Part shown: positions 5,829 through 32,000 of the stretch, one piece after another
Position numbering within the stretch: the stretch's first letter is position 1
How the letters are laid out: each line of letters starts with the position of its first letter
From: Caedibacter taeniospiralis
GTDB lineage: Bacteria; Pseudomonadota; Gammaproteobacteria; Francisellales; Francisellaceae
Direction: 5' to 3'
Length of the DNA: 32,000 nt
Assembly: GCF_002803295.2 (NCBI RefSeq)
Contig: NZ_PGGB02000005.1
Coordinates: 61,969 to 93,968, forward strand
The notes under the pieces: model-generated
The model's database searches: none
Told to the model about the DNA's origin: nothing
Seen by the model: only the letters and a program-made list of their open reading frames with translations
Translations under genes and position numbers: made by a program

Positions 5829-5866
5829 ACCCCAAACTGTCAAGACAGTTTGGGGTAGTATATGAC
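5819..5866. repeat. 48-bp perfect inverted repeat (23-bp arms, 2-nt centre), candidate operator or hairpin
   Basis: The sequence is GTCATATACTACCCCAAACTGTC AA GACAGTTTGGGGTAGTATATGAC. The arms are exact reverse complements, checked base by base. Confidence 0.9.
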
Positions 5867-5910
5867 AGCAACTATGCTTTTTGTGTGCCATTATGAAAAC
5901 CTTTTTGGCG

Positions 5911-5960
5911 GCGAGCAGCCTTGCTTGCTTGTGGAGTCAGCTGCTCGCGTCAAAAGTTTT
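5911..5960 (+). promoter_or_regulatory. Leader stem-loop followed by a T-tract (attenuator or terminator-like) upstream of malQ
   Basis: GCGAGCAGC (5911-5919) pairs with GCTGCTCGC (5940-5948) across a 20-nt loop. Flanking TTTTG/CAAAA can extend the stem. TTTT follows at 5957-5960, about 115 nt before the malQ start. Confidence 0.35.
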
Positions 5961-6074
5961 CGTATAACAATTAAAATCCCTTGCAAAAGGGAGAAAGTCC
6001 ATATATGGTCAGACCTGCGAGGCGAGGTAGTGCAGCAAAAATGCGTAACGCCCATCAATAAACAGGGACAAAGG

Positions 6075-7457: not shown

Positions 7458-7486
7458 AATGGAGCAATGTATACAGCAGTTACAAA

Positions 7487-9394: not shown

Positions 9395-9510
9395 TAAGGG
9401 ATATCAAGTTTAATAAGATACCCATTTGACGGTAGTAGTAGGGTGGAGATCCCTAAACTTATGGGCTTTACGTCATTGTGAGCGAGGATATTGTCCCAAT
9501 GCCAAAAAGT

Positions 9511-9540
9511 CTGCAAAATAGTTTACGATGAGTATATAAT
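9511..9540 (+). promoter_or_regulatory. Candidate internal sigma70 promoter upstream of glgA (CTGCAA-18 nt-TATAAT)
   Basis: A perfect TATAAT lies at 9535-9540 and a weak -35 CTGCAA at 9511-9516, within the 178-nt glgB-glgA spacer. Pattern match only. Confidence 0.25.
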
Positions 9541-9572
9541 GCGGATCATTGAATTATCGATCAACCATCAAC

Positions 9573-11057: not shown

Positions 11058-11075
11058 ACCTGACTATTCCAGAGT

Positions 11076-11100
11076 AGTCAGGTAAACCTGACTTATTTTT
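11076..11100 (+). terminator. Rho-independent terminator-like hairpin after glgA
   Basis: AGTCAGG (11076-11082) pairs with CCTGACT (11087-11093) around the loop TAAA, followed by TATTTTT (11094-11100). The left arm can alternatively pair with 11058-11066. Confidence 0.45.
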
Positions 11101-11118
11101 CAATAGTCACTAAGGTTA

Positions 11119-13641
11119 ATGGAGTTTTTATTAGAGGTAAAAAATATGGTAAAAAATACAGAAAAAGCTTCTCAGATCATGGCACAGGTTGAGAGCGAAG
11201 TTGATAGTAATAAAGAGCAAATTGCAAAAAGCTTTATCCATTACTTATACAATTCACTGGGTCGAGAAATCGATTCTAAGGCACATTATCTGGAGCATGC
11301 GCTTGTTTATACCATTCGCGATCGACTGATGATTAATTGGAAAAAAACAGAACAAAGATACGCTATCAAAAATTTGAGGAAAGGATACTATCTTTCCATG
11401 GAGTTTCTGATAGGACGTTCTTTGACCAATAGTCTGATCAATCTAGGATTGAAAGATATTACGCTTGCCGCCTTATATGATTTGGGTCTCAACTTTGAAG
11501 AAATTGAAGAGGCTGAGCATGATGCAGGGTTAGGCAATGGCGGTTTAGGAAGATTGGCCGCCTGCTTTATGGATAGTTGTGCCACATTGGCTTTGCCGGT
11601 TATGGGGTACGGATTGCGCTACGAATATGGAATGTTTAGGCAGCATATAAAAAATGGTTACCAGGTAGAAGAGCCTGATCAGTGGTTGCGCCATGGTTAC
11701 TACCCCTGGGGATTAATGCGTAGAGAATATACCAGGGTGGTTAAGTTTGGAGGTAGAACCGTTAAATCAGTTCACCCTGACACAGGACGGCTCATGGTGA
11801 AATGGGAAGATACTTGCCCCGTATTGGCTGTGCCATTTGATGTTCCTGTACCTGGATTTAGCAATAATGTTGTCAATACCTTAAGATTATGGTCAGCGGC
11901 AGCCGTTGAAGCGTTTAATCTCAATGCGTTTAACGCAGGCTCATATGCCTCTTCGGTGGCAGAAAAAAATAATGCAGAAAGTATCACAATGGTACTTTAT
12001 CCAAATGATGCAAGTGAAAATGGTAAGGAATTACGTCTTAAACAGCAGTATTTCCTGGTGTCAGCAAGTCTTCAGGATATTGTTGTGCAATGGGCAGAGA
12101 AAAATAATAATGATTTTACTCAATTTGCTGAAAACAATACCTTTCAACTAAATGATACCCACCCAAGTCTTGCAATTGCAGAGTTAATGCGACTTTTAAT
12201 GGATGAGTATGAGTTAGAATGGCAGGATGCCTGGGAGATAACGAGCAAAACCATGGCGTATACTAACCATACTTTATTGCCTGAAGCATTAGAAAAGTGG
12301 CATGTTTCACTCTTTGAGCGCCTATTGCCACGCCTGTTGGAAGTTATTTATGAGATCAATAAGCGGTTTTTAAATGTCATTGAGCAGAAATGGTCAGACG
12401 ATATCAGTAAACAGCGCGAGCTATCTATCATTGACGAAGATAATATGGTGCGCATGGCACATTTAGCCATCGTAGGCAGTTATTCGGTAAATGGTGTCGC
12501 AGAGCTACATTCTCAGCTGTTAAAAGAGAGTTTGTTTAAAACGTTTTATGATTTATGGCCACAAAAATTTAATAACAAAACCAATGGCGTGACCCAAAGG
12601 CGCTGGCTGGCGGTTTGTAATCCTGAGCTTAAACAGTTATTGGAGGATAAAATTGGAGGGGATTGGATTGTAAATCTTGATGAGTTAAAAAAAATAGAAG
12701 CATTTGCAGAGGAGAGTGCATTTTGCGAGCGCTGGGAGAAAGTCAGACTTGCTAATAAAAAACGTTTAGCTAATTACATTAAAAAAGAAACCGGAGTGGA
12801 GTTTGATCCCAGTGCGTTATTTGATGTTCAGGTAAAACGGATTCACGAATATAAGCGCCAGCTGTTAAATATTCTGCATGTTATTCATCTTTATAACAGG
12901 ATTAAAAGAGGGCAAACTCAACATTGGACTAATCGCTGTGTGATTATTGGCGGCAAAGCAGCGCCAGGTTATTACATGGCAAAGCTTATTATTAAGTTGA
13001 TCAATAATGTGGCAGATAGGATTAACCATGATTTAGAAGTTGGGGATAAGCTTAAGGTTGTTTTTCTGCCAAATTACAGCGTTTCAGCAATGGAAGTGAT
13101 TTGTGCAGGAACAGATTTATCCGAGCAAATTTCTACAGCAGGCAAAGAAGCTTCAGGCACGGGTAATATGAAGTTTATGATGAATGGTGCGATCACCATT
13201 GGCACGCTCGATGGTGCTAATGTTGAAATATTAGAGGAAGTGGGTAACGAGAATTTTTTTCTCTTTGGATTAAAAACAGCTGAGGTTTCTGCGCTGCGCA
13301 AACATTACAACCCTGAGCACTTTATCCAAAATAATAACGACCTTAAACAAGTGATGGATAGGCTTGAGTCTGGATTTTTTAATGAAGAAGAACCGAATAT
13401 TTTTGACAGCATCATAGGTTCATTAAAAAGCCCGTATGATCCCTGGATGACTTTAGCAGATTTTGCAGACTATCTACAGGCACAACAGCGGGCAGCGAAT
13501 ACCTTTCAAAATAAGGCGGGTTGGATAAAAATGAGCATCATAAACTGTGCGCGAAGCGGTCGTTTTTCATCAGATCGCACGATACGTCAATACAATGATG
13601 AAATATGGAAGCTAAGCCCCGTGGGTATAGACAAAACGTAG
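11119..13641 (+). CDS. glgP: Glycogen/maltodextrin phosphorylase (GT35)
   Basis: About 830 aa with the pyridoxal-phosphate lysine motif EASGTGNMKFMMNGA, plus GLGNGGLGRLAAC and TNHTLLPEALE. The ATG at 11146 (AGAGG 8 nt upstream) is an equally plausible start. Confidence 0.9.
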   Translation: MEFLLEVKNMVKNTEKASQIMAQVESEVDSNKEQIAKSFIHYLYNSLGREIDSKAHYLEHALVYTIRDRLMINWKKTEQRYAIKNLRKGYYLSMEFLIGRSLTNSLINLGLKDITLAALYDLGLNFEEIEEAEHDAGLGNGGLGRLAACFMDSCATLALPVMGYGLRYEYGMFRQHIKNGYQVEEPDQWLRHGYYPWGLMRREYTRVVKFGGRTVKSVHPDTGRLMVKWEDTCPVLAVPFDVPVPGFSNNVVNTLRLWSAAAVEAFNLNAFNAGSYASSVAEKNNAESITMVLYPNDASENGKELRLKQQYFLVSASLQDIVVQWAEKNNNDFTQFAENNTFQLNDTHPSLAIAELMRLLMDEYELEWQDAWEITSKTMAYTNHTLLPEALEKWHVSLFERLLPRLLEVIYEINKRFLNVIEQKWSDDISKQRELSIIDEDNMVRMAHLAIVGSYSVNGVAELHSQLLKESLFKTFYDLWPQKFNNKTNGVTQRRWLAVCNPELKQLLEDKIGGDWIVNLDELKKIEAFAEESAFCERWEKVRLANKKRLANYIKKETGVEFDPSALFDVQVKRIHEYKRQLLNILHVIHLYNRIKRGQTQHWTNRCVIIGGKAAPGYYMAKLIIKLINNVADRINHDLEVGDKLKVVFLPNYSVSAMEVICAGTDLSEQISTAGKEASGTGNMKFMMNGAITIGTLDGANVEILEEVGNENFFLFGLKTAEVSALRKHYNPEHFIQNNNDLKQVMDRLESGFFNEEEPNIFDSIIGSLKSPYDPWMTLADFADYLQAQQRAANTFQNKAGWIKMSIINCARSGRFSSDRTIRQYNDEIWKLSPVGIDKT

Positions 13642-15943: not shown

Positions 15944-17356
15944 TTACAGGCTATAATACATCTGAAACTCAATTGGATGCGGCGCCATATTTAACTTCTG
16001 GACTTCCTCCATTTTAAGATCTATATAAGCATCAATAATATCATCAGAAAACACGCCACTTGCCGTTAAAAATTCACGATCCTGATCAAGCGCAGTTAGC
16101 GCTTCCTCAAGGGAGCCTGCTACGGTTGGAATATCATACAACTCCTCAGGTGGCAAGTTGTATAAGTTTTTATCCATTGCCTCGCCTGGATGAATTTTAT
16201 TTTTGATCCCATCAAGCCCTGCCATCACCATGGCTGAAAACGCTAAGTATGGGTTTGCCATTGGATCGACGAAACGCACTTCTATACGACGCGCTTTTTC
16301 ACTATTAACAAAAGGGATACGAATAGATGCCGAGCGATTGCGTGCGGAATAAGCAAGTAATACAGGTGCTTCAAATCCAGGAACCAGGCGCTTGTAACTA
16401 TTGGTCGATGGATTACAGAATGCGTTTAATGCCTTTGCGTGTTTGATAATACCGCCTATGTAGTAAAGTGCTTCTTCTGAGAGTCCAGCGTAACCATTAC
16501 CTGCAAACAGATTCTTGCCATTTTTTGATAAGGATTGGTGCACGTGCATCCCAGAGCCGTTATCTCCTGGAATAGGTTTTGGCATAAAAGTTGCACTCTT
16601 GCCGTAAGCATTAGCCACATTGTGCACTACGTATTTGAATACCTGCGTCTGATCTGCTTTATCGACCAGCGTTGAAAACTTGGTTCCAATTTCACACTGC
16701 CCCGCTGTCGCTACTTCATGATGGTGAACCTCAACCTTCTGTCCAAGCTCTTCTAAAACTGAGCACATTTCTGAGCGAATATCTTGCAATGAATCCACTG
16801 GCGGCACGGGGAAATAACCGCCTTTAACACCTGGTTTATGTCCATTGTTAAGACCATTGGCAAAATCATTTGTGCTCCATGCAGCTTCATGACTCCTGAT
16901 TTTGTATTCAGAGCCTTCCATATCTGATTTATAAGTGACATTGTCAAAAATGAAAAACTCAGGCTCTGGACCAAAAAATGCCGTGTCGGCAATCCCTGTT
17001 GATTTAATATAGGTTTCACATCTTTTTGCAATCGAACGCGGATCGCGATCATAAGCCTGCATCGTTGCGGGCTCCAGAATGTTGCAGCGAATGATCAAAG
17101 TCGGCGCGTCAAAAAATGGATCGACAAGCATCGCTGAAGCATCAGGCATTAAAATCATATCCGACTCATTTATCCCTTTCCAGCCTTCAATTGATGAGCC
17201 ATCAAACATTTTGCCATCATTGAAAAAATCGTCATCCACAGCATGCACGGGAATGGTGACGTGTTGTTCCTTACCTTTAGTATCTGTGAATCGAAGATCG
17301 ACAAACTCGATTCCATATTCACTCACCATGGCTTGATAATGTGTAAAGTCAGACAT
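15944..17356 (-). CDS. glnA: Glutamine synthetase type I
   Basis: 470 aa containing [27 protein letters not shown] and an adenylylation-site-like [12 protein letters not shown]. Confidence 0.95.
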
Positions 17357-17501
17357 ACTGATAACGCTCCTTGAGATTTTGGTTAATGGTTTTGCCGCGT
17401 TCTATTCTATCAGAGTTTTTTTGCAAAATTTAGCAAGATTTTCAAGGAAAAGTTATCTCCTTTACGGTATGCTAAACGGCAGAATGGTACTAGGTTTGGA
17501 A

Positions 17502-17996
17502 ATGATCGTGATAGATCAAGAAGGTTTCAGAGCAAATGTGGCGATCATCATTCTAAATGATCAAAACAAAGTGTTCTGGGGTCGTCGTGTAAACCAAAGT
17601 TCATGGCAATTTCCACAAGGAGGATTGAACTCCGGCGAAACGCCAATTGAAGCAATGTATCGCGAACTCAAAGAGGAGGTTGGTTTGATGCCTTATGATG
17701 TCGAGGTCATTGCTGCAACAAGAACATGGTTGCGATATCGACTTCCCAGATTTTTAATTAGAAGAAATTGTCCTTTGTGTATTGGTCAAAAACAGAAATG
17801 GTTTCTGCTCAGACTTAAATCACCCGAGAGTGCTATTAATCTTAATGCAAACATCAAACCCGAGTTTGATGAGTGGCGTTGGGTAAACTATTGGTATCCA
17901 ACAGGCAAAGTTGTCGCTTTTAAGCGTCATGTCTACCAAAAGGCGCTGGAGCATTTTTTCCCAGTGCTTAAAAATTTTTCACAAGAGCAAGAGTAA
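17502..17996 (+). CDS. rppH: RNA pyrophosphohydrolase (Nudix)
   Basis: The sequence [19 protein letters not shown]...SWQFPQGG is colinear with enterobacterial RppH. The Nudix box is [23 protein letters not shown]. The start is the ATG at 17502; the track start at 17379 is an extension. Confidence 0.9.
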
Positions 17997-20323: not shown

Positions 20324-21178
20324 ATGATAAAAGGGTATGGTTTTGGTTTTCTCTATGTTTTTCTTGTCGCTGCTTCGACCATTTGGCTAAACAGTCTGGG
20401 TCAAGGCATAACCATTCCTATCCTTTTATTTTATACCTCGCTGACCTCAATATTGATTTTCAATTTGGTGAATATTAATCGGTTTAAGCAAAACCATGCG
20501 CTAATTTTGAGTTCCAAGAAAAATTGGCTTTATATGTCAATTTGCCTAATCTTCGTCTGGTATTTTACCTACTATGCAACAATTCACAGTTCTGCTGAAT
20601 TTTTCATTGCGACAGCGTTTTTGACGGCAGCATTTATTTCTTCAGGGCTTGCCAAGAAATATTTTAAAACCTTGGCTTGTGTGTTCTCTTTGGGGTTGGT
20701 TTATTTTTATTCTTCTATCGATTCGCCTATCACTTTAGGGACCGCCATGCTTGCAGGGGCAGCAACTTATGCCTATTACCGAAGTTCTTATCAATTTAGC
20801 CAAGAAACAAAAATGAGTGCGTTGGCAATTCTCTCCATTCGATTTTATCTGGTTTTGCTTTTTGCAGTGCTTTACATTGTGGCTTCAGGCGAGCTCATTC
20901 ATCTAAAAATTTCGATTGATGAAATCGCGGTAATTGTCTTATTTGCATTGGTGAACATGGTAATGCCCGCTTATTTGTCGCAAACCTCTTTGCATGCTAT
21001 CGGTGTCAGTAAGTTTACTTTTTTAAACACGCTCATCCCTGCTTTAACCTTCTTTTTGGATGCCATTTTTAATCATACTTGGCATATTCAAATGCTTGTT
21101 GCTTGTCTTTGTGCTACGCTGACCCTGAATGTAGATCAATGGGGACGGGCATTTAGCGCCCGCCAGCAACGTCAATAA
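20324..21178 (+). CDS. Polytopic membrane protein (about 9-10 TM), possibly a DMT/EamA-like transporter
   Basis: 284 aa, strongly hydrophobic. AAAGAGG lies directly upstream of the ATG. The family assignment is a guess from topology only. Confidence 0.45.
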   Translation: MIKGYGFGFLYVFLVAASTIWLNSLGQGITIPILLFYTSLTSILIFNLVNINRFKQNHALILSSKKNWLYMSICLIFVWYFTYYATIHSSAEFFIATAFLTAAFISSGLAKKYFKTLACVFSLGLVYFYSSIDSPITLGTAMLAGAATYAYYRSSYQFSQETKMSALAILSIRFYLVLLFAVLYIVASGELIHLKISIDEIAVIVLFALVNMVMPAYLSQTSLHAIGVSKFTFLNTLIPALTFFLDAIFNHTWHIQMLVACLCATLTLNVDQWGRAFSARQQRQ

Positions 21179-21899
21179 AACTTCCTGTGACATACGAGGC
21201 TTCATCGGACAACAACCAAAGAATGGCATTTGCTACTTCACCTGGCTCACCACCTCTTTGCATCGGTAAGGAATCTTTGATGCGATCAACCCGATTAGGC
21301 TCACCACCGCTGGCATGGATATCAGTATAAATGAATCCAGGTCTGACACAGTTCACACGAATTCCCTCATTTGCCACTTCTCGTGATAGGCCTATGGTTA
21401 AAGTATCGATTGCTCCTTTTGAGGCGGCATAGTCCACATATTCTCCAGAGGAACCTAAGCGTGATGCGGCAGAGGAAACATTAACAATCGCACCTCCACT
21501 TCCCCCTTGTTTCGTAGACATGCGTTTCACAGCCTCACGTGCGCATAAGAAATGGCTTGTGATGTTGGTCGTGAAAATTCGGTTGAGTCGGGCCATATCC
21601 ATTTGATCAACACGCATTTTTTGCTCTAGGATTCCCACATTGTTGACTAAGGCTGTTAGGAGACCTAGTTCTTTGTCTACCGTTTTAAAGAGCTTTTCAA
21701 CAACGGATTCTTGGCTAACATCCCCTTCAATAGCAATTGCTATCCCGCCAGTTTTTTGGATTTGAGCAACCAAATTCTGAGCTGACTGTTGCTTACGAAG
21801 GTAGTTAATACATACAGCGTAACCTTGTGCTACCGCTTTTAATGCAGTTTCAGCACCAATTCCACGGCTTGCACCTGTGATCAACATTACTTTTTGCAT
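21153..21899 (-). CDS. Short-chain dehydrogenase/reductase (classical SDR)
   Basis: 248 aa with the cofactor motif TGASRGIG, NNVG, and the catalytic S...YAASK. Confidence 0.85.
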   Translation of the reverse strand: MQKVMLITGASRGIGAETALKAVAQGYAVCINYLRKQQSAQNLVAQIQKTGGIAIAIEGDVSQESVVEKLFKTVDKELGLLTALVNNVGILEQKMRVDQMDMARLNRIFTTNITSHFLCAREAVKRMSTKQGGSGGAIVNVSSAASRLGSSGEYVDYAASKGAIDTLTIGLSREVANEGIRVNCVRPGFIYTDIHASGGEPNRVDRIKDSLPMQRGGEPGEVANAILWLLSDEASYVTGSFIDVAGGR

Positions 21900-21934
21900 G
21901 TGGTAGTCCTTTCTCGGTCTGGCACCTCATTATT

Positions 21935-22624
21935 CTAGTCAATATTGGACTTACTGATAATGTGCGTACTCCATTTTTTCTTGAGCAGCAGGCATTTTTT
22001 GTTGAGGTAGTTTAACGGAAAGGGCATGGGGCGCATAATATCAACCATCAAGATAACGCGAATGCTGTCGCTGTGATTCGTGACTTCATGGTCATAGCGA
22101 TCATCAATGATAATGCTTTCACCCATTTTCCAAGTATAGGTCTTGTCAGATACCCTAATAAAAGGAGGGTTGTTTTTGGGGATCGTAATTCCAAGGTGAT
22201 ACCTCAGTATGCCTGCATAAGGGCCCTGATGTGCTGCAAGGCAGACGCCAGGCTCCAGCACAGCGATCGTTACATTAATCGGATCGGGCATGCCTTTGAT
22301 AAGCTCAAGTAGTTTAGGGCAATCTTTTTGGGCATGGGGGTTGATTTGCCACATGAAAGACACATAGTAGAGTTTCCAGTTTTCAGAAACCTCTTTGGCT
22401 CGAATGGGATCAATATCTTTGTAGGCAGTCAAATTTCTGGTTGAGACTAGCTGATCAATTTCTTCTTTAATTTCATCAAAGTGGTCTTCTAATATTTTTG
22501 AGTCTGGAAAAACCTTTTTTGAATCCAAAAAAGGCGGGCGCCTGTCCCAGCCTGCATAAGTTAAAAAAAGAGCATTTAAGAGGCTTCTGAAAAAAGCGCT
22601 ATTCTTACTGATTGATCCCTTCAT
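21935..22624 (-). CDS. Aspartyl/asparaginyl beta-hydroxylase-family Fe(II)/2OG oxygenase (LpxO/AspH-like)
   Basis: 229 aa. The core HQGPYAGILRYHLGITIP ... IIIDDRYDHEV resembles the Asp_Arg_Hydrox fold signature (H...R.HLGL..P). GAGAGGG lies upstream of the ATG. Confidence 0.6.
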   Translation of the reverse strand: MKGSISKNSAFFRSLLNALFLTYAGWDRRPPFLDSKKVFPDSKILEDHFDEIKEEIDQLVSTRNLTAYKDIDPIRAKEVSENWKLYYVSFMWQINPHAQKDCPKLLELIKGMPDPINVTIAVLEPGVCLAAHQGPYAGILRYHLGITIPKNNPPFIRVSDKTYTWKMGESIIIDDRYDHEVTNHSDSIRVILMVDIMRPMPFPLNYLNKKCLLLKKKWSTHIISKSNID

Positions 22625-22635
22625 TTTTCCCTCTC

Positions 22636-23469
22636 TTAATTTCTAGGTTTTCTGGCAATGATATAGCAGAACTGGCCTATTTTTTGTCTGAGTTTATCCC
22701 TGGACTGAATATAGTCATGAATTTTCCCACTTTCTTTTAAAGAGGTTAATTTATTCAGTACCCCATTGAGCTCATCTGGGGTTAATAAGGAAAAATGCGA
22801 GTCGCCATCCCTGAATTCTTTCTTATAAAGAGAGTCAGCATCGAAATATCCATTGTGTTGGATGATGGTAGAAGTGGGTACGATTTTTTCTGGGGTGGCA
22901 TAGCCAAACGTATTGAGTATTTCTACCAATTGATCATCAGATAAAAAGCGTTTTTTCATTCTATCTACGGCAGGCTTAATCAATTCACCCCACCACACGC
23001 CATCATCCAATTGTTCGTGAGTGATGGTGTTGATGATCAATCTCCCATTGGGTTTTAAAGCCTTAAGCGCATATTCAAAAAAGCGTCTGTGATTTTTAAA
23101 GTTTGTGTCTACTTCATCTATGTGATGAAGCGACTGGTTGCACATAATAGCATCGAATGTATTTTCTTTAAATGGAAGCTCAGAAATATCACATCGAATT
23201 AGGTCATCATTTTTCAGGTCTTTTTCTGTATATTTTTCTTTTGCTTTGGCAAGCATTCCCTGGCTAAAATCTGCGGAAATCACATTTGGAATGAATTTTT
23301 TTAAAGGGACTGCATAGTTACCTGTACCACACCCTGCATCCAGAACCTTAATATTTTCCAGTTTCTCCTGTATCGTTAGAATGTAGCCAAGGACAATTTC
23401 AATACCGACTGCGCTTCTGGTTTTATCATAATTTTTGCTGGTTTCGTCATAGCGCTCATACTTACTCAT
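22636..23469 (-). CDS. Class I SAM-dependent methyltransferase
   Basis: 277 aa with motif I VLDAGCGTGNYA and a post-I acidic residue (ISADFS). The start codon overlaps the upstream Trm112-like stop (ATGA). Confidence 0.8.
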   Translation of the reverse strand: MSKYERYDETSKNYDKTRSAVGIEIVLGYILTIQEKLENIKVLDAGCGTGNYAVPLKKFIPNVISADFSQGMLAKAKEKYTEKDLKNDDLIRCDISELPFKENTFDAIMCNQSLHHIDEVDTNFKNHRRFFEYALKALKPNGRLIINTITHEQLDDGVWWGELIKPAVDRMKKRFLSDDQLVEILNTFGYATPEKIVPTSTIIQHNGYFDADSLYKKEFRDGDSHFSLLTPDELNGVLNKLTSLKESGKIHDYIQSRDKLRQKIGQFCYIIARKPRN

Positions 23470-23651
23470 TTGCTTAACTCCTTGTCGCTGATTTTGATTG
23501 CTTCACTGCTGATTAAATTGGGTATGCCATCCTTGATGAGATAGGCGACACCGATCTCTTTTGAGATTAAGCGGTTATTTGCCTCATCATAAATTAGAGG
23601 TTGCCTGGTGGTTGGGCAAACAAGATAATTGAGTAGTTCCTTGTTAAACAT
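23466..23651 (-). CDS. Trm112/UPF0434-family small zinc-ribbon-like protein
   Basis: 61 aa from the ATG at 23651: MFNKELLNYLVCPTTRQPLIYDEANNRLISKEIGVAYLIKDGIPNLI. This matches the LL..LVCP...L......L......YPI.DGIP.L pattern of Trm112p-like proteins. The track start at 23717 is an extension. Confidence 0.65.
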   Translation of the reverse strand: MFNKELLNYLVCPTTRQPLIYDEANNRLISKEIGVAYLIKDGIPNLISSEAIKISDKELSK

Positions 23652-24693
23652 TTTTAGCGTTCTCCGTTGCTGAGTTGAAGTTAATGATAGATTGTAAAGG
23701 TACTGGGGAAAAGCCAAGGCGTTCTTTTATAGCCTGTGTTGTGCGTCCTGCCTCAATGATCTTGTAATTATGTTGTAGGGCATATTGATACAAATTGACA
23801 TACAACATGGTGTAAGGGCTGTATTCAGTTAAGGAGTAATCCACCCCAAGCGCCCAAAAATGCAGCGTGTCATGGTCTAAAAATACGATACCAGCAGCGA
23901 CTCGCTGCTCGCCATGCTTGATCTCAAGTACCGTTGCAATGGCATCGCAGCTTTTTAGAAAATTGTACATCGGGCCTTTCGGATAGTAAGCCCCTGTCCC
24001 ATATTTGTCAGTGGTCTGATGAATCAAATCGACAACCGCTTCTAAATCAGCATCCCGAATGTTGTACCACTTTGCAGAGGAGTCGGTTGCATTGTATTTT
24101 CGTATTTGCCTATTTACTTCTTGTCGCCCATGTCTAGGTAGCTTTGCAATAATTTCATCTAAACTGGAGTGTGGAGCTATCTCTGTCCTAAAACGATTCC
24201 ACATAGGATTGATTTTGTACTCATGCTTGCTAAAAATATCCAAGGGATAGCTTAAGGAATGAGTATCAATATTTAAAACACCGCAGCATTCTATTTGTTC
24301 TTTTTGGCGGATTGCTTTCAAAGAGCTCAAGATTTTTTCAATTACGATGTTTTCATGGCCTTTGGCCGCCAAAATTCTTGAATCGCTAACGTGCATAATA
24401 TGAGAGAAGAGCGCTTTGGTATCAGCAGAAAAATCATAGTTAGTGCTTTGGCTTAGCACTTTGAAGGTGTCTACATTTTTTTGTAGGTATAAAGGGAGAA
24501 AGCCAACAATATCATCCTTGTGTTTAACAACGATGTAGAATGTTTTTAAGGTAGGAAGCAACGGAAATTGCTCAACAGCATTTAAAAGTTCCCAGCTATA
24601 AAATACAGATGCCCCCACAGATTTTTGAAATTTTTCGTATGGAGCGTGTTCAATGCTCTTAAGACCTTCAAAAACAGAAACTTCAAAACTCAA
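23644..24693 (-). CDS. FemAB-like / DUF482-type GNAT-fold acyl- or aminoacyl-transferase
   Basis: 349 aa with a TTG start and GGGGG 7 nt upstream. The C-terminal half (LHFWALGVDY...YTMLYVNLYQYALQHNYKIIEAGRTTQAIKERLGFSPVPLQS) resembles the FemAB-like 'peptidoglycan biosynthesis/recognition' GNAT family. Assignment is by eye only. Confidence 0.5.
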   Translation of the reverse strand: MSFEVSVFEGLKSIEHAPYEKFQKSVGASVFYSWELLNAVEQFPLLPTLKTFYIVVKHKDDIVGFLPLYLQKNVDTFKVLSQSTNYDFSADTKALFSHIMHVSDSRILAAKGHENIVIEKILSSLKAIRQKEQIECCGVLNIDTHSLSYPLDIFSKHEYKINPMWNRFRTEIAPHSSLDEIIAKLPRHGRQEVNRQIRKYNATDSSAKWYNIRDADLEAVVDLIHQTTDKYGTGAYYPKGPMYNFLKSCDAIATVLEIKHGEQRVAAGIVFLDHDTLHFWALGVDYSLTEYSPYTMLYVNLYQYALQHNYKIIEAGRTTQAIKERLGFSPVPLQSIINFNSATENAKNV

Positions 24694-25076
24694 GATCGCC
24701 CCCTAGCTAATTTATATTCTATGGTGTCGTGATTTAATAAATCAATGGCACTACCTCAAGCAAGCACAGGTAAGTAACCACAAGATTTTAATCTCTTCGG
24801 GATATATTTCCCGCTGCTTGCGGCAGGGAGTTTCATTTGAGCCCAGTTTTCAAATTTATTATGATTTTTTGCAAAAAAGCAATCAAATGGAAATGAAACT
24901 TAGGAGCGAATTCTAGCGTAAAACGTAAGGCAATACAAAACAAAAATTAGGTTTTTGCTATTTCAGGGAAGTGTAAGAAAAAGTGATGAAGGTGTTGTTT
25001 AATTCCTGTAAATATTGTAATTTTATGGCAGTTCGCACAAACTTGGCATAGCTCAGGTAAAGAGATAACGAAGTGA

Positions 25077-25462
25077 TTAAGATTCAACTTAATTAGGGAA
25101 GCACAATGCTGTGAAAATGTGCGTAAATTACGTTGGTCAAAGGGCGTGATCTGTGCCCATATTGCCAAGCCCTGTCAGAAGAGATTATGAAGAGAAGGAG
25201 AGTGGGGAAAAGCATGTTCTGTCCACGTTATCGTTGCGAACGATGTCATCAGGACTTTGATGACTTAACTAATAGCATTTTCACAGCGTGCCATCAACCC
25301 CTGAGGGTGTGGATTTTACGCCTTTATTTTATGGGTTTAAAGTTATCCAATGAGCAGATTGCAAAGAAGTTTGTGTATAATGCAAGAAAAAAGAGAAAGG
25401 TCTTACCTGACCACTCTTTAGAGGCTTTTTTATGTAGAAAACCAACATTGGAGAAAGCATGA
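25077..25462 (+). pseudogene. Remnant of an IS1595-family (ISXO2-like) transposase: N-terminal zinc-ribbon region only, frameshifted, DDE domain missing
   Basis: One frame reads ...CCENVRKLRWSKGVIC. An overlapping frame continues LCPYCQ...RYRCERCHQDFDDLTNSIFTACHQPLRVWILRLYFMGLKLSNEQIAK. Together these match the RW..G..CP.C...RY.C..C...F...T.TIF....PL..W pattern of the IS1595 transposase zinc-ribbon domain. Similarity ends after about 100 codons. Confidence 0.5.
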
Positions 25463-26358
25463 CCATCACCTCCCTGAAACACCAAAAGAACCATCTAAAA
25501 AATTAAAGGAACTGCTTTACAGCTCGGAATTAAAATTTTTTATGGAGTCTCATAGTGCATTAAGTGCCAAAATTGCAGAGGATGCAGGATTTGAGGCTTT
25601 ATGGGCCTCACGTCTCTCCATTTCTGCTTCAATGGGGTTAAGTGATAGAAACGAAGCCTCTTGGACACAGGTTCTAGAGGTAGTTGAGTTTATGGCTGAC
25701 CATACTAAAGTTCCTATTTTAATGGATGGCGACACTGGCTTTGGCAACTTCAATAATGTGCGCCGTTTAGTGAAAAAGCTCTCCCAAAAAGGAGTGGCTG
25801 GGGTATGCCTGGAAGATAAGCTATTTCCAAAGCTTAATTCTTTCTTAGGGGATGGTCAGGAATTAGCAGATATTGAAGAGTTCAGTGGAAAAATTAAAGC
25901 TGCCAAAGATAGCCAACTGCATGATGATTTTTGTGTGGTAGCACGTACTGAAGCGCTTGTTGCAGGTCATGGCATGGACGAAGCTTTGAAGCGTGCAGAT
26001 CGTTTTCATGCTGCTGGTGCAGATGCCATCTTGATTCATTCTAAAAAAGATACGGGAGACGAGGTGCTAGAATTTTGTAAACGGTGGGAGAATCGTTGCC
26101 CTGTCGTGATCGTGCCGACAAAATACTACAAAACTCCCACCACCACTTATCGGGAAGCTGGCGTGTCAACTGTAATTTGGGCTAACCATAGCTTGCGTGC
26201 GTCTATTGCAGCGATGAAGCGTGTAACTTCTCTGAATTAAAAAAGAAGAAGCTGTTTCTGGTATTGAGCATGAAATTGCCTCTCTTCACGATGTGTTCTC
26301 ATTAACAAATGAATTTGAAGTGCAGGAAGCTGAAAGAAAATACGGTATGCCATCATGA
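25459..26358 (+). pseudogene. pepM: Phosphoenolpyruvate mutase, interrupted by two single-base frameshifts (three frame segments)
   Basis: The core ORF 25542-26240 has the PepM signature [10 protein letters not shown] plus [26 protein letters not shown] and [15 protein letters not shown]-preceded ATG at 25459 encodes [14 protein letters not shown] in another frame. The C-terminal about 38 aa (EEAVSGIEHEIASLHDVFSLTNEFEVQEAERKYGMPS) is again in that first frame and ends in an ATGA overlap with ppd. The total span is 900 nt, or 300 codons. Confidence 0.85.
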
Positions 26359-27467
26359 TTTGTCCAGAATATTTTACCAATGCTCTCATTGATCGTGGCG
26401 TGCAATTTTTCACAGGGGTGCCTTGCTCCTATTTAACCCCATTGATCAATGAGGTCATCGCTACCGAGGTCACGGATTACGTGATTGCTTCAAGCGAAGG
26501 AGATGCCCTTGCTATGGCTTCAGGAGCATGGCTCGCTGGCAAATTAGGATTGGTGATGTGTCAAAATTCAGGACTTGGCAACATGATTAATCCTTTAACA
26601 TCATTAAATGCCCCTTTTAACATTCCCGTTTTGCTATTGATCACGTGGAGAGGCAAGCCTGGTGAGCCCGATGAGCCTCAGCATGAGGTAATGGGGAAAA
26701 TTACAACAGGTCTTTTAGATTTAATGGGGATTCAATGGAGCTATTTTCCCGAGACTGAAGCCGAGGTTTTGGCATCCTTGGATAAAGCCATGTCAGTCAT
26801 GGGCAATGCCCATTGTCCTTATGCCCTCATTTTACAAAAGGACAGTTTCAAAACAGGAAAGCCAGCGCCTAAAGTGGTTGAAGATGCGCACTTGCCAACT
26901 CGTGAGGAAGTATTGAGCACTTTCTTAAAATCTTTGCCCGATGAGGTCTCTGTGATTGCAACCACAGGAAAAACAGGACGGGAGCTATACACGTTGCAAG
27001 ATCATTCAAAGCATTTCTACTGCGTAGGCTCAATGGGCTATGCTAATGCTTTAGCTCATGGAGTGGCCTTAAATAGCAAAAAACCAGTGTTTGTGATTGA
27101 TGGTGATGGAGCAGCGATTATGCATCTTGGAAATCTCACCAGTATTGGTGCCAGTGCGCCGAGTAATTTAGTACATGTTATTTTAGATAATGGAACGTAT
27201 GATTCTACAGGGGCTCAAGCTACCGTTTCGGAGTACGTCGATTTTGCAGCATTAGCCAAAAGTTTGGGCTATAAAAAACAATTTCGCTGCTCTTCGCTAA
27301 GGGATTTTTCAAATGCTTTGAAAACCGTAGATTCTGGTGGACCTGCATTAATTCATTTGAAAATAAAAAGCGGTTCAATGAAAAATTTAGGGCGTCCAGC
27401 GGTTAAGCCGCATGAAATTGCTCGTCGGTTACGTCAACACATTCAGAAAATGGAACAAGGGGAATAG
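26355..27467 (+). CDS. ppd: Phosphonopyruvate decarboxylase (ThDP-dependent)
   Basis: 370 aa with the N-terminal FFTGVPCSYLTPL and the ThDP motif GDGAAIMHLGNL...LDNGTYDSTG. It sits directly downstream of pepM with an ATGA overlap, the canonical pepM-ppd arrangement. Confidence 0.85.
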   Translation: MICPEYFTNALIDRGVQFFTGVPCSYLTPLINEVIATEVTDYVIASSEGDALAMASGAWLAGKLGLVMCQNSGLGNMINPLTSLNAPFNIPVLLLITWRGKPGEPDEPQHEVMGKITTGLLDLMGIQWSYFPETEAEVLASLDKAMSVMGNAHCPYALILQKDSFKTGKPAPKVVEDAHLPTREEVLSTFLKSLPDEVSVIATTGKTGRELYTLQDHSKHFYCVGSMGYANALAHGVALNSKKPVFVIDGDGAAIMHLGNLTSIGASAPSNLVHVILDNGTYDSTGAQATVSEYVDFAALAKSLGYKKQFRCSSLRDFSNALKTVDSGGPALIHLKIKSGSMKNLGRPAVKPHEIARRLRQHIQKMEQGE

Positions 27468-27470
27468 TTT

Positions 27471-28703
27471 ATGCCAGAAATGATTAAAAAAGCCAAGCTC
27501 AATCCAAGCTTGTTAAACCTACAAATTTACGCTTCTAAAGCTATTTCCTTAGAGGTCAAAAAGAACCCTGACATAGTGGGGCTAAGCTTTGGTGAGCCAG
27601 AGTTTGGTCCCCCCCCTTATGCCCTAAAAGACATTGAAGATAAAGACCTTTCTATCGGCAACTTTTTAAACGCGGTAAAGCGCTATGAGGACCCGAAAGG
27701 ATCATTAGAGCTTAGGCAGGCTATCGCTGCTTGGTATAAGCAGCGTTACAATTTAGATGTGAACCCTGAGAAAGAAATTATGGTGACACACGGAGGGGTT
27801 GAGGCCATTACCCTAGCCATTTTGTCTACCAGTGAAGTGGGTGATATCATTGCGGTGACGGACCCCTCTTACATGCTTTATTCTCGAACGATTACAACCC
27901 TAGAGCGTAAGTGCCATACGATTCATCGTCCAGTAGGCGGGTATGAATATAAGAAAATTCTGGAAGATAAAGCTATTCTGCAGTCAGACTTTGCCAAAGC
28001 AAAAACGATCATTATTAATTCACCAGAAAATCCTTCTGGGTATGTGGTTGATCCTACTGAATGGGAAATGATTGCCGATTACTCCAAAAAAATGGGGCTA
28101 TGGGTCATTCATGATGAGGTTTACGATACAATGGCGTTCGAGCGAAAGCACATTCCATTTCGAGCTAGTTGTTCTTTGCCACCCTATTCAATTATGATCA
28201 ACAGCTTTTCTAAAAAATTTGGTATTCCAGGCTTACGTATTGGCTGGATAGTCGCAAATGAAGAGGTAATTAATTTAGCGAGCAAGATTCATGACTATAT
28301 GTATCTTGGGGTCAATATTCAGTATGAAAAAATTGCAACTCGCTTACTGTCTGACCAAAGAAATATGGAATGGCTGGCAGGCATTACTCAGAAAATAAAG
28401 CAACGCGCAGAAAAAGCAATGCACGTTCTGGGTGAACAGCAAGGGTTTTCCTGGCCTCGTCTGCCTCTTGGCGCAATGTTTCTTTTCCCGAATGTGCGTG
28501 CTTTGTATGATAAAATGCCTGAAGCCTATCGGTCAAAAGGTGTAGTTGTAGGGGATGCTGTAGCACAATATTTGATGAAAGAGAAAAAAGTGGCTGTCGT
28601 GCCTGGTTCAGTGTACGGTTCGGAAAGCAGTGAGCATGTACGCCTGGTATTGTGTACAACTGATAAAGAGTTTGATCTTGCGCTTGACCGCCTTCAAGCT
28701 TAA
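27471..28703 (+). CDS. Class I/II (aspartate-aminotransferase-fold) PLP aminotransferase
   Basis: 410 aa with NSPENPSG and the PLP-lysine motif NSFSKKFGIPGLRIGW. It contains an in-frame C8 tract (27609-27616) encoding PPP. Confidence 0.85.
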   Translation: MPEMIKKAKLNPSLLNLQIYASKAISLEVKKNPDIVGLSFGEPEFGPPPYALKDIEDKDLSIGNFLNAVKRYEDPKGSLELRQAIAAWYKQRYNLDVNPEKEIMVTHGGVEAITLAILSTSEVGDIIAVTDPSYMLYSRTITTLERKCHTIHRPVGGYEYKKILEDKAILQSDFAKAKTIIINSPENPSGYVVDPTEWEMIADYSKKMGLWVIHDEVYDTMAFERKHIPFRASCSLPPYSIMINSFSKKFGIPGLRIGWIVANEEVINLASKIHDYMYLGVNIQYEKIATRLLSDQRNMEWLAGITQKIKQRAEKAMHVLGEQQGFSWPRLPLGAMFLFPNVRALYDKMPEAYRSKGVVVGDAVAQYLMKEKKVAVVPGSVYGSESSEHVRLVLCTTDKEFDLALDRLQA

Positions 28704-28714
28704 GGGCGTCAATC

Positions 28715-29536
28715 ATGAAAACTGAAAAAAATTCCTTGATCGAACAAGGATTTGCTCATTTTAAAAACGCGCTGCATCCTTCTGCATTTTCTGCTTTGAG
28801 TGAGGAATATGAACGTCTGGTTGTAAGAGCGCGAGAAATTATAGCTCACACTAAGAAAGAAAATATCAGTTTGGGAGATTATTACCAGCAGCATGATGGC
28901 GAAATTATTGTTGTACCTGAAGCGGAGCAACCGACCGAGCCTTGCCGTTTTGAATATATTGCGCATTGTTCAAAGCGTTTAAATGATGAGGTTGTTCAGT
29001 ATGTGAAAGATTTAATTGAAACGCTAACTGGCGAGTCATTTGTACTGTTTAAAGATAAGTGCAATCTTAAAAATCCAGGAGGCGGTGCTTTTCCTCCACA
29101 CCAGGATATTACTGCATATCGCCATTTCAAGCCAAAGTTCCATATTACTGCGGCAGTCATGCTGGATGACTCAACCGTAGAAAATGGTTGTTTGGAAATG
29201 GCAAGTAATTATCACCAAAGTCTTGGGACTCAAGCATTAGGCATTCTGGATTTTTATGAGGGAGGTCCTCGCAATGGAGACATTAAGGATGAGATTAGTC
29301 AGCAATTTGATTGGAGGTCTATTCCAGCGGCGCCTGGTGATGTAGTGCTTTTTAATTCCTTTGTGCCACATCGATCAGCAAAGAATACTTCGCAAAAGAG
29401 TCGACGGAATTTCTTTTTTACTTTTAATGTGGCTCGAGAAGGCAACTGGTATGAGCATTATTATGCTGCAAAAAAGCTGGACTTTAATAATCCGATGTTT
29501 CATGTTTCGACCCCAACGCAGCATCGAGGCAAGTAA
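28715..29536 (+). CDS. PhyH-family Fe(II)/2-oxoglutarate-dependent dioxygenase
   Basis: 273 aa with the HxD facial-triad motif PPHQDITAY and a distal His/Arg in FVPHRSAKNTS. Length and layout are typical of phytanoyl-CoA-dioxygenase-like proteins. Confidence 0.7.
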   Translation: MKTEKNSLIEQGFAHFKNALHPSAFSALSEEYERLVVRAREIIAHTKKENISLGDYYQQHDGEIIVVPEAEQPTEPCRFEYIAHCSKRLNDEVVQYVKDLIETLTGESFVLFKDKCNLKNPGGGAFPPHQDITAYRHFKPKFHITAAVMLDDSTVENGCLEMASNYHQSLGTQALGILDFYEGGPRNGDIKDEISQQFDWRSIPAAPGDVVLFNSFVPHRSAKNTSQKSRRNFFFTFNVAREGNWYEHYYAAKKLDFNNPMFHVSTPTQHRGK

Positions 29537-30628
29537 ATGAGTAAACAGGCACGTTTATTTACCCCAGGACCTTTAAATACTTCACAACAGGTTAAGGCAT
29601 CGATGCAGATTGACCTTGGAAGCCGTACCGAGACACTTGCCGATTTGACTCAGAATATTCGGAATGAGCTTGAGTCTATTGCTGAATGCGGGAAAGAGTG
29701 TACCTCTGTTCTGTTGCAGGGAAGCGGCACTTTTGCTGTGGAGGCAATGCTAAGTACGTTGATTCAGGCAGATGATTGTGTATTGGTCATATCTAATGGT
29801 GTATATGGTGACCGGATGGCTAAAATATGCCAGATACATGGACTGCCTTTTTTTGTCTTGCAGCAGGACCCAGCGGCTCCGATTCAGCTTGATGAGGTTG
29901 AGAAATTTCTCAAAAATGAGCCATGCATCACACACATTGGGGTGGTTCAATTTGAGACTGCTGTAGGGATATTGAATAATATCGACGCTTTACTAGTTTT
30001 AGCTGAGCAGCATGCTTGCAAAGTTTTGGTGGATGCAATGAGTTCCTTTGGAGCATTACCATTGCCCTATCAAAGTACTGCTTTGGTTGCGGTAGTATCT
30101 TCGGCGAATAAATGCCTACATGGAGTGCCTGGGTTAGCATTTGTCCTAGTCCGCTTGGAAAGCCTATTGCGTTCTCGCGTAACCCGCTCATTAAGTTTAG
30201 ATTTAAAGGCTCAGTGGAAATCTTTTGAAGATCAGCATCAATGGCGTTTTACTCCACCCACGCATTGTTTGCTTGCTTTTCAACAAGCTTTATTGGAGTT
30301 TAAGCAGGCAGGTGGCATGCAGGCTCGCCTCAAAAAATATCAAGCACTCAATGAGCAATTGATAGCGGGATTAGAGCAGCTTGGCATCTATCCCGCTATT
30401 CCAGAATCATACCGTGTCCCGATGATTACGACCTTTTTGCTCAAGAACATCAAAATCAATTTTAATGATCTGTACACTGCCTTGTTTGAGCAAGGATTAG
30501 TGATTTATCCTAGCAGTTTTCTGGCAGAAAAAAGCTTTCGGGTCGGGTGCATTGGCGAACTTGATGCGAGAGATATCGAGAGATTAGTTTCTGCGATTAA
30601 ACAGGTACTTTTACAAAATGAAAAATAA
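29537..30628 (+). CDS. phnW: 2-aminoethylphosphonate:pyruvate aminotransferase-like class V aminotransferase
   Basis: 363 aa with LFTPGPLNTSQQVKASM at the N-terminus and the PLP-lysine region SSANKCLHGVPGLAF, both matching the PhnW pattern. The start abuts the preceding stop codon. Confidence 0.8.
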   Translation: MSKQARLFTPGPLNTSQQVKASMQIDLGSRTETLADLTQNIRNELESIAECGKECTSVLLQGSGTFAVEAMLSTLIQADDCVLVISNGVYGDRMAKICQIHGLPFFVLQQDPAAPIQLDEVEKFLKNEPCITHIGVVQFETAVGILNNIDALLVLAEQHACKVLVDAMSSFGALPLPYQSTALVAVVSSANKCLHGVPGLAFVLVRLESLLRSRVTRSLSLDLKAQWKSFEDQHQWRFTPPTHCLLAFQQALLEFKQAGGMQARLKKYQALNEQLIAGLEQLGIYPAIPESYRVPMITTFLLKNIKINFNDLYTALFEQGLVIYPSSFLAEKSFRVGCIGELDARDIERLVSAIKQVLLQNEK

Positions 30629-31694
30629 CCGTATTACAGGTCCCACTGATTTGCCCCCTGAGGTAAGAAATGCAATCAATCAACAGATGATCAGTCATCG
30701 CAGTGACGAATTCAAAAGTGTTTTTGCCAGAGCTTCTAAGAAACTTCAAACGCTTCTGCATTCCAAAAATATCCCTTTGTTTTTAAGCTGCTCAGGTACA
30801 GGTGGATTAGAGGCTGCAATTTTAAATACCCTGCAGAAAGGAAACCGAGTGCTTGTGCTGAGTGCAGGATATTACGGGGATTTATTTGCTCAAATAGCAA
30901 AAAAGCACTTAGGTGAGCATGTGATGACCCATCAAGTTACGCCAGGCACAGCAATTAGTCCTGAGAAAGTGAAGGAGATTCTTCAGGAGCAAGATTTTGA
31001 TGCGGTCTTGCTAACACATAGTGAAAGCTCAACTGGAGTTTCAAATCCCGTGCCAGAATTAGCTGAGTTGATTCGGCAATACTCGAATGCTTTAATTCTG
31101 GTGGATGCGATTAGCAGTGTAGGCACAACTGAAATTAATATGGAAAAATGGGGTGTGGATGTCATTGTTACTGTCCCACAAAAGGGTCTAATGGCCCCGC
31201 CAGGCTTATCCATGATCGCGATAAGTGACCGAGCTATGGATATTGTGAACAGTGGCTGCGCTCTAGGTTCTTTTTATTTTGATTTTAAACGTGCTTATGA
31301 GGCTACATTAAAGAATCAACCTGCCTTTACCCCTGCAATGTTTTCTGTTTGGGGGATTGATGCAACTTTAGATTTGATCGAAGCTGAGGGTTCTCAGCAG
31401 GTTTTTGCTAGGCACAAGCGATTATCATTATGCTGTCAAAATGGTGTTCTTGCTGCTGGTTTTACACTTTTTGCAGAGAAAGATTTTCGTGCTCCTGGCA
31501 TTACCTCTTTTCGCGTGCCTGCCTCCACCTCTTCTCATGCACTACAAAAATATCTGGAAGAAAAACATCAAATTTTTGTAGGTGTGGGTGTAGGGTCTTG
31601 GGAAAGTGAAGTAATTCGTGTTGGTCACATGGGGTGGGTCTTTGATCAAGACATTGAATCGGTTTCGCAAGCCTTAGCTGAAAGTTGTCTTTAA
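30618..31694 (+). CDS. Second class V aminotransferase (serine-pyruvate/alanine-glyoxylate aminotransferase-like)
   Basis: 358 aa with ITGPTDLPPEVRNAINQQMISHRSDEF and the PLP-lysine region VPQKGLMAPPGLS. It overlaps the phnW-like gene by 11 nt. Confidence 0.8.
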   Translation: MKNNRITGPTDLPPEVRNAINQQMISHRSDEFKSVFARASKKLQTLLHSKNIPLFLSCSGTGGLEAAILNTLQKGNRVLVLSAGYYGDLFAQIAKKHLGEHVMTHQVTPGTAISPEKVKEILQEQDFDAVLLTHSESSTGVSNPVPELAELIRQYSNALILVDAISSVGTTEINMEKWGVDVIVTVPQKGLMAPPGLSMIAISDRAMDIVNSGCALGSFYFDFKRAYEATLKNQPAFTPAMFSVWGIDATLDLIEAEGSQQVFARHKRLSLCCQNGVLAAGFTLFAEKDFRAPGITSFRVPASTSSHALQKYLEEKHQIFVGVGVGSWESEVIRVGHMGWVFDQDIESVSQALAESCL

Positions 31695-31776
31695 TTTTTA
31701 TTGACCCTCTGCTGTGATAACAGCATAACTGTCAATCACAGGACTAGCATCAATAATGTACGGTTCTGTCGCAGAG

Positions 31777-32000
31777 GTGCGACACGAAGTCGCATATTAG
31801 TGCTGCTTCCCACGTTAAGAGGAAGCCATCTGTGCCACCAGATGAGCCTACCGATCTGAATAAAGAGCGATCGGAACAATGTAATGAAGCGCAGTAATGC
31901 GCGGGGTGAGAATCGCAAGAGGACAACCCTCCTGATAACCATAGATCGGGTGAGTGCTAGGCAGTTAGTATGGCGAATATAGGTGAATCTACGTAGAAAG
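31777..32000 (+). ncRNA. Structured RNA, probably the 5' end (domain I) of a group II intron running off the window
   Basis: The segment begins with GTGCG (31777). It then has a dense series of short perfect helices: GCGAC/GTCGC, GCTTCC/GGAAGC, CATCTG/CAGATG, CCGATC/GATCGG, GCGCA-GTAA-TGCGC (GNRA loop) and GAGG/CCTC. It looks richer in G+C than the flanks, but this was not counted. It has no credible ORF. Confidence 0.4.

Follow-up and report, generated by a model that had tools for sequence, protein, structure and literature searches.

In strain 51K of Caedibacter taeniospiralis, an obligate and uncultivable endosymbiont of Paramecium tetraurelia (PMC5773718, PMC7297999), the gene for phosphoenolpyruvate (PEP) mutase, pepM, is very probably a genuine pseudogene that was inactivated recently. 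The gene occupies positions 25459-26358 (+) of a 32,000-nt window of the 51K genome, which is the whole stretch of DNA that was analysed and the source of all coordinates given here. Three lesions are found in it: one base appears to be missing near the 5' end, one base is in excess near the 3' end, and a near-invariant glycine, Gly52, is replaced by arginine. Two indels in the consensus together with a substitution in a single gene of 900 bp form the pattern of relaxed selection after a first hit, not of error. A preliminary description of this DNA had proposed recent pseudogenisation as one reading, and that reading is now favoured by the three lesions in one gene, the full length of 23 neighbouring open reading frames (ORFs), an identical assembly of a read set, and the absence of pepM and the adjacent ppd from the relative L012. 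Judged by its sequence, the ancestral gene is that of a bona fide PEP mutase (Ppm), from which the present copy departs in lacking an intact ORF and the conserved glycine.

Reading frames and lesions of pepM

A Shine-Dalgarno (SD) sequence, GGAG at 25450-25453 (+), can be read directly in front of the gene and is separated by a spacer of 5 nt from an ATG at 25459. Translation from this codon gives the 5' remainder of pepM in its original frame (25459-25506, +), a 15-codon ORF that ends at TAA 25504-25506. Homology to PEP mutases begins at 25497 in the -1 frame and makes up the core of the gene (25497-26240, +), which is closed by a premature TAA at 26238-26240. The 40 C-terminal codons (26236-26358, +) are back in the frame of ATG 25459 and would be unreachable by translation; their stop at 26356-26358 overlaps the ATG of ppd at 26355 in the arrangement ATGA. 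From 25459 to 26358 the span is exactly 300 codons. This layout had already been recognised from the letters alone, including the SD-preceded start, the short frame to TAA 25504, the A6 run at 25497-25502, the core stop and the overlap with ppd, and all of it was reproduced by reading and translation. The core frame is open from 25422 to the TAA at 26238-26240. Its sole ATG, GTG or TTG codon is ATG 25542, which opens a 232-aa product starting with MESH, and the only other near-cognate codon is CTG 25512.

The surplus base near the 3' end is the better defined of the two frameshifts. When four intact homologues were compared with the window by tblastn, two high-scoring segment pairs were obtained that lie in different frames and are contiguous in the query. 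The first, in frame +3, reaches residue 250 (...TSL) at 26234, and the second, in frame +1, opens with residue 251 (I) at 26236; exactly one base is therefore in excess. A DNA alignment with the orthologues from two relatives, L013 and L002, opens a single-base gap in both at CTG-A/ATT, placing the insertion at 26235-26236 (+), where 51K has AA and the orthologues have a single A (CTG-ATT-AAA, encoding L-I-K).

At the 5' end, the simplest history is the loss of one A from an A7 tract behind the SD-preceded ATG 25459, for which the A6 run at 25497-25502 (+) is the most parsimonious site. Its position is inferred and not mapped to the base because orthologue homology begins only at KKL (25497), in the core frame; the initiator Met of the orthologues aligns to AAA 25485. 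Loss of an in-frame start by substitution at AAA 25485 would be a less parsimonious history, since two substitutions would be needed and no SD is present there. Whichever history applies, the core as it now reads is without a proper start. The earlier proposal of a missing base in the A6 run and an extra base near 26236 has thus been confirmed for the extra base by tblastn and DNA alignment, and the A7-to-A6 site keeps the standing of a parsimonious placement. The description of the two frameshifts as compensating has to be given up as a functional statement: about 245 codons lie between them, and opposite signs are a one-in-two outcome. The heptamer AATTAAA is common to both sites (25498-25508 and 26235-26245), and both premature stops read AAT-TAA, which is put down to chance in a coding sequence rich in Lys codons and in A. 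The heptamer was rejected as a shared recoding signal, since one site would have to shift in the opposite direction to the other. A scan for promoters and terminators gave nothing decisive.

For database searches, the three segments were joined by adding one A and removing one A, which yields a protein of 299 residues. In this reconstruction, the premature stop falls at residue 259 of about 299, and no ATG, GTG or TTG of the core frame precedes residue 29. The protein scores 373.7 bits against the NCBIfam equivalog TIGR02320 PEP_mutase (cutoff 319.55) and 204 bits against PF13714, with profile positions 2-237 of 240 covered. Among 5.8 billion proteins there were 7128 matches, the best intact ones being 79-86% identical and 286-323 aa long. 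With 19 intact homologues the reconstruction aligns without gaps from L16 to the end, and with the PEP mutase of Mytilus (1M1B) it aligns over residues 9-291 (E 2e-107); the gap-free fit to the PEP mutase pattern claimed in the preliminary description needs correction only for a single one-residue gap against 1M1B. Conservation was computed on the 121 closest homologues, whose median length is 294 aa. All 121 read through both junctions, the homologues listed are 274-372 aa long, and pepM of L013 and of L002 is likewise intact across both lesion sites. The possibility raised earlier, that functional PepM proteins genuinely start at the MESH methionine and end at VTSLN, finds no example among these 121 proteins. 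Apart from the broken gene itself, no pepM more than 86% identical was present in the protein collection searched, and a scan of genome contigs gave a nearest relative not above 75%. Scans of JGI metagenome contigs for two exact patterns, taken from the region of the Arg52 codon and from the 3' end of the aminotransferase gene, yielded no DNA like that of C. taeniospiralis, and no record matched the exact products of ppd, the class I/II aminotransferase gene, PhyH and glnA.

The Ppm-specific motif EDKX5NS (PMC8942020) is kept at residues 119-128 of the reconstruction. Residues W49, S51, L53, D63, D90, D92, E119, K125, N127, S128, R163 and H194 are all present and are invariant in the 121 homologues, and the core retains 12 of 13 active-site residues. 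The corresponding metal and substrate ligands of the Mytilus enzyme are W44, S46, L48, D58, D85, D87, E114, K120, N122, S123, R159 and H190. The thirteenth position is residue 52, where the homologues have Gly (119 of 121) or Ser (2 of 121) and never Arg. In the window, homologue alignment places CGT at 25611-25613 (+) where a Gly codon is expected, confirming the reading WASRLS and its origin in one nucleotide change (GGT to CGT, a single G to C). Arg52 aligns to Gly47 of Mytilus (1M1B) and is the only departure from any column that is at least 95% conserved. In an AlphaFold model (pLDDT 88), the helix after strand 2 has Arg52 at its N-terminus. Gly47 would be a backbone position of the substrate-binding W-x-S-G-L motif; a search for its role in the library consulted found nothing. 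Compared with known Ppm/PepM enzymes (TIGR02320; Mytilus edulis, 1PYM/1M1B), the gene is alike in scoring above the equivalog cutoff, in having EDKX5NS and all ligands but one, and in its ATGA overlap with ppd as in the intact orthologous operon. It is unlike them in being broken twice in frame, in having no in-frame start for its core and in carrying Arg for Gly47.

From these lesions a course of inactivation may be proposed. Ancestral pepM would have run from the SD-preceded ATG 25459 to 26358, with its end inside ppd; it would then have lost a base near its 5' end, most simply in the A tract, gained one A at 26235/6 and acquired the change of Gly52 to Arg. Ribosomes starting at ATG 25459 would now stop after 15 codons. 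The internal starts CTG 25512 and ATG 25542 have no well-placed SD, and their products would lack the N-terminal helix and, in the case of ATG 25542, half of strand 1 as well. Both products would carry Arg52 and would be without the end of helix 8 and both C-terminal helices. In the AlphaFold model, M29 lies inside strand 1, the truncation falls inside the helix at 244-263, and the helices at 276-281 and 284-296 are gone. PEP mutase activity would be lost through G52R and the truncations. Translational coupling from pepM to ppd would also be lost, with a probable polar effect on ppd. With the committing step from PEP to phosphonopyruvate off, the operon would be silenced at its entry.

Competing explanations

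The 1.3-Mb draft genome of 51K was built from Illumina MiSeq 2x300 reads with ABySS (PMC5773718), and in version 2 of the assembly contigs from Oxford Nanopore Technologies (ONT) sequencing served only for joining Illumina contigs (PMC7297999). If the lesions were artefacts of sequencing or assembly, the true gene would be intact, with A7 and a single A, and the faulty bases might stem, for example, from ONT-derived consensus at joins near a repeated insertion sequence (IS) remnant. This is improbable. One of the indels does lie in a homopolymer, ONT contigs (R9, 1D2) did join Illumina contigs, pepM adjoins repeat-like IS debris of the kind at which Illumina contigs tend to break, and the ancestral frame is otherwise undamaged. 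Against this, the base assembly is Illumina, and a Logan contig of 1403 nt from run ERR3813248 (L001) is 100% identical to window positions 25038-26440, covering the junction between the IS remnant and pepM, both frameshifts and the CGT codon. A k-mer contig as exact as this is not obtained from noisy long reads, and the sequence is therefore backed by short reads. In the 23 other ORFs of the window (28.4 kb), 79 homopolymer runs of 6-9 nt are without a frameshift, the other ORFs of at least 100 aa with a Pfam match cover their profile end to end, and those with an orthologue in L013 agree with it in length. The second indel changes A to the dinucleotide AA and involves no long homopolymer, the substitution G52R comes with the indels, and the gene is deleted in the close relative L012.

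Some considerations still weigh against regarding pepM as a dead gene. Run ERR3813248 may belong to the deposited RNA-seq of C. taeniospiralis, PRJEB36201 (PMC7297999), or may be the assembly's own DNA library, and its independence is not assured; the nearness in time of its ERR number to PRJEB36201 is suggestive of the former. Sequencing error, though now unlikely, keeps a small probability, and the first lesion is placed less exactly than the second. No further damage is seen in the five downstream genes or in the ancestral pepM frame, as would be expected only after a very recent event or if the genes were still in use at a low level. Strictly speaking, L012 could be a diverged second copy in the same genome. 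Finally, the loss of activity is deduced from G52R and the truncations.

It is very unlikely that the truncated core ORF, of 232 aa from ATG 25542 or of 242 aa from CTG 25512, is a working or neofunctionalised enzyme in its own right. The RefSeq label would suggest this, as WP_267901799.1 is entered as a 242-aa phosphoenolpyruvate mutase [Caedibacter taeniospiralis], with CTG 25512 read as Met and no flag as a pseudogene, and the 232-aa ORF falls in the same 90% cluster. The core also has EDKX5NS and most of the active site. Yet none of the 121 closest homologues is this short at both ends. In the AlphaFold model, a start at M29 falls within strand 1, and the stop cuts helix 8 and drops two C-terminal helices; in the Mytilus enzyme, the C-terminal helices are reportedly part of a helix-swapped oligomer, a finding attributed to Huang et al. 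in 1999. The internal starts are without a well-spaced SD, and Arg stands in for a near-invariant Gly. Moreover, the conserved ends that the ORF lacks can still be read out of frame on either side of it, which argues for a frameshift and not for a designed short form.

Leaky rescue or programmed recoding has a still smaller chance of being correct. In this reading, some full-length PepM would come from ribosomes that slip by -1 at CUA_AAA_AAU_UAA and by +1 at AAU_UAA_A, or from polymerase slippage. The sequence A_AAA_AAU formally matches the X_XXY_YYZ heptamer, both shifts occur at a stop codon, AATTAAA is present at both sites, and the downstream frame is undamaged. The case fails on several counts: RNA folds 3' of the two sites are no better than those of shuffled sequences (z +1.64 and -0.97), no SD-like stimulator lies upstream of either site, and by codon-anticodon rules tRNA-Asn would re-pair poorly in both shifted frames. 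The tracts known for useful transcriptional slippage are longer than A6, and a slip in the A run would in any event leave the TAA at 26238 in place. Neither frameshift is seen in any orthologue, a single mRNA would have to undergo shifts in both directions, Arg52 would persist in the product, and the sister strain dispenses with pepM.

Comparison with established cases of recoding leads to the same estimate. The A-rich heptamer at the first site resembles that of dnaX (-1, A_AAA_AAG), and a stop codon in the A site is shared at both sites with prfB (+1, CUU_UGA), but the sites in the window have no stimulators, re-pair poorly, are not conserved in orthologues and need two opposite shifts. Tamas et al. 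are said to have described in 2008 frameshifts in poly(A) tracts of Buchnera and Blochmannia that are rescued by transcriptional slippage. The pepM gene is similar in having a frameshift in an A run and a conserved downstream frame in an endosymbiont gene. It differs in that its tract is only A6, its second shift lies in no usable tract, the stop of that shift survives slippage, and an active-site substitution is present. An equally slender chance attaches to the idea that the damaged pepM is expressed at a low level by two recoding events on one mRNA, giving a trickle of Arg52 PEP mutase and keeping the downstream genes in use. In a milder variant, 2-aminoethylphosphonate (AEP) from the host would make pepM and ppd dispensable, and the retained tailoring genes would act on host-derived AEP.

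Least credible is slipped-strand phase variation, in which an A6/A7 toggle would switch the pathway on and off, as the preliminary description had considered: the first lesion does plausibly lie in a homopolymer at the very 5' end, but restoring A7 still leaves the second frameshift and G52R and hence no "on" state, A6 is short for a contingency tract, and the one other read-set assembly that covers the site (ERR3813248) also has A6.

By comparison, pepM read as a recent pseudogene shares much with the frameshift pseudogenes of reductive evolution: a 1.3-Mb genome of an obligate endosymbiont, one-base indels that include one within an A run, a locus that is rearranged and carries IS remnants, and an independent, larger deletion that removes these genes in a sister strain. 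It differs from them in nothing essential, except that it is caught very early, with a single substitution at a conserved site, no extra stops and its partner genes intact.

The operon in 51K and in its relatives

The lineage is, as far as its contigs indicate, shedding the phosphonate pathway, with an independent loss of pepM and ppd in the close relative L012. This 4548-nt Logan contig (SRR28719869) was seen in 5 runs, encodes an identical PhnW protein, and matches window positions 24655-25097 and 28393-31806 at 99.8%. It lacks the segment at 25098-28392, with an IS1595-type remnant, the genes pepM and ppd, and some 307 codons of the class I/II aminotransferase gene; in place of this segment it has about 660 nt that belong to a truncated DDE_5 transposase gene. 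Over the shared 3.4 kb, L012 and the window differ by 7 substitutions, 5 of which change the protein. With L002 as the outgroup, the changes E15A, G60V and Q351* of the last aminotransferase are assigned to the L012 branch, and L142S to that of 51K.

An intact ten-gene operon is found in the more distant L013, whose pepM is 80% identical. The genes stand in the order pepM, ppd, class I/II aminotransferase, PhyH dioxygenase, PhnW, second class V aminotransferase, FemAB-like, methyltransferase, Asp/Asn-hydroxylase-like and short-chain-dehydrogenase-type (SDR) gene. Counting a convergent EamA-like gene, all 11 genes of L013 have full-length orthologues in the window, pepM as a frame-broken one. 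The genes beside the L013 cluster include a phage-type integrase and a gene of the mitochondrial carrier family (PF00153), at 4436-5698 and 17224-17520 of that contig. The context suggests that the cluster is a mobile island in another intracellular, protist-associated bacterium. The outgroup L002 is the metagenome-assembled genome SKS3.bin72, with a pepM that is 75% identical and a coverage of about 2x. At 7158-8074 of L002, the coding sequence passes from ppd residues 7-238 straight into the final 54 residues of PhyH, so that the 3' end of ppd, the whole class I/II aminotransferase gene and the greater part of PhyH are lacking. This locus may be either another decaying copy or a low-coverage misassembly.

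In 51K, the genes that follow pepM on the same strand are full length. First comes ppd (26355-27467, +), for phosphonopyruvate decarboxylase, with 424.6 bits against TIGR03297 and profile positions 1-360 of 360 covered. It has no obvious SD of its own and is probably translationally coupled to pepM. It is followed by genes for the class I/II aminotransferase (27471-28703, +), the PhyH-family dioxygenase (28715-29536, +), the AEP transaminase PhnW/AepZ (29537-30628, +) and the second class V aminotransferase (30618-31694, +). The distal half of the operon is displaced to a position upstream of pepM and consists of the FemAB-like gene (23644-24693, -), the methyltransferase (22636-23469, -), the Asp/Asn-hydroxylase-like gene (21935-22624, -) and the SDR gene (21153-21899, -). 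Together with the EamA-like gene (20324-21178, +), recognised by synteny with L013, they form a block at 20324-24693 that is inverted relative to its counterpart at 12931-17104 of L013. The earlier statement that the rest of the cluster is intact is accordingly true of the individual ORFs and not of the operon, as the ancestral ten-gene unit has been split by an inversion with mobile-element remnants at its borders. The gene set, with its FemAB-like protein, methyltransferase, hydroxylases and three aminotransferases, suggests a tailored product derived from AEP.

Directly upstream of pepM, and overlapping its start, lies the remnant of an IS1595-type transposase (25133-25462, +). It is a 109-aa ORF for the N-terminal Zn-ribbon part, with a CxxC...CxxC pattern and homologues in PF12760 (E 1.8e-16, 52% identity), and it has probably displaced the native promoter region of pepM. 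After the last operon gene, a match to group II intron D1-D4 is found at 31826-31957 (+) (Rfam RF02012, 81.8 bits, E 1.5e-15). The contig of L012 ends just before this match, as expected for a repeated element. By their positions, the IS1595 remnant and the intron match appear to mark the two boundaries of the rearrangement. Elsewhere in the window, a complete glycogen gene set is intact at 5862-13641 (+), comprising 4-alpha-glucanotransferase, branching enzyme, glycogen synthase and glycogen phosphorylase.

Annotation and decay of the pathway

The gene is a textbook early-stage pseudogene. Its novelty is confined to the instance and the setting: an unflagged RefSeq model with a CTG start, two routes of loss in near-identical strains, and a rearranged operon. 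To specialists in reductive genome evolution none of this will be surprising, as it is ordinary genome decay that public annotation has missed. The genome papers on C. taeniospiralis (PMC5773718, PMC7297999) make no mention of phosphonates or pseudogenes, and the supplement of the Dual-Seq paper has no entry for PEP mutase or phosphonate genes. The consequence for surveys is practical. Phosphonate producers are usually mined for by PF13714 coverage together with EDKX5NS, a filter that the core passes. Inventories would therefore list C. taeniospiralis among the producers, though its committing enzyme is almost certainly dead.

The three loci also offer a time-resolved picture of operon decay, from the intact ten-gene operon of L013, through the inverted, IS-flanked operon with a broken first gene in 51K, to the deletion of pepM and ppd, accompanied by further erosion, in the 99.8%-identical L012. 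Relaxed selection would be the cause, in keeping with reductive evolution in an obligate endosymbiont. Ciliates, Paramecium included, make AEP lipids of their own, which may perhaps explain why selection was relaxed. That a phosphonolipid-making host may relax selection on the corresponding pathway of its symbiont is a testable idea.

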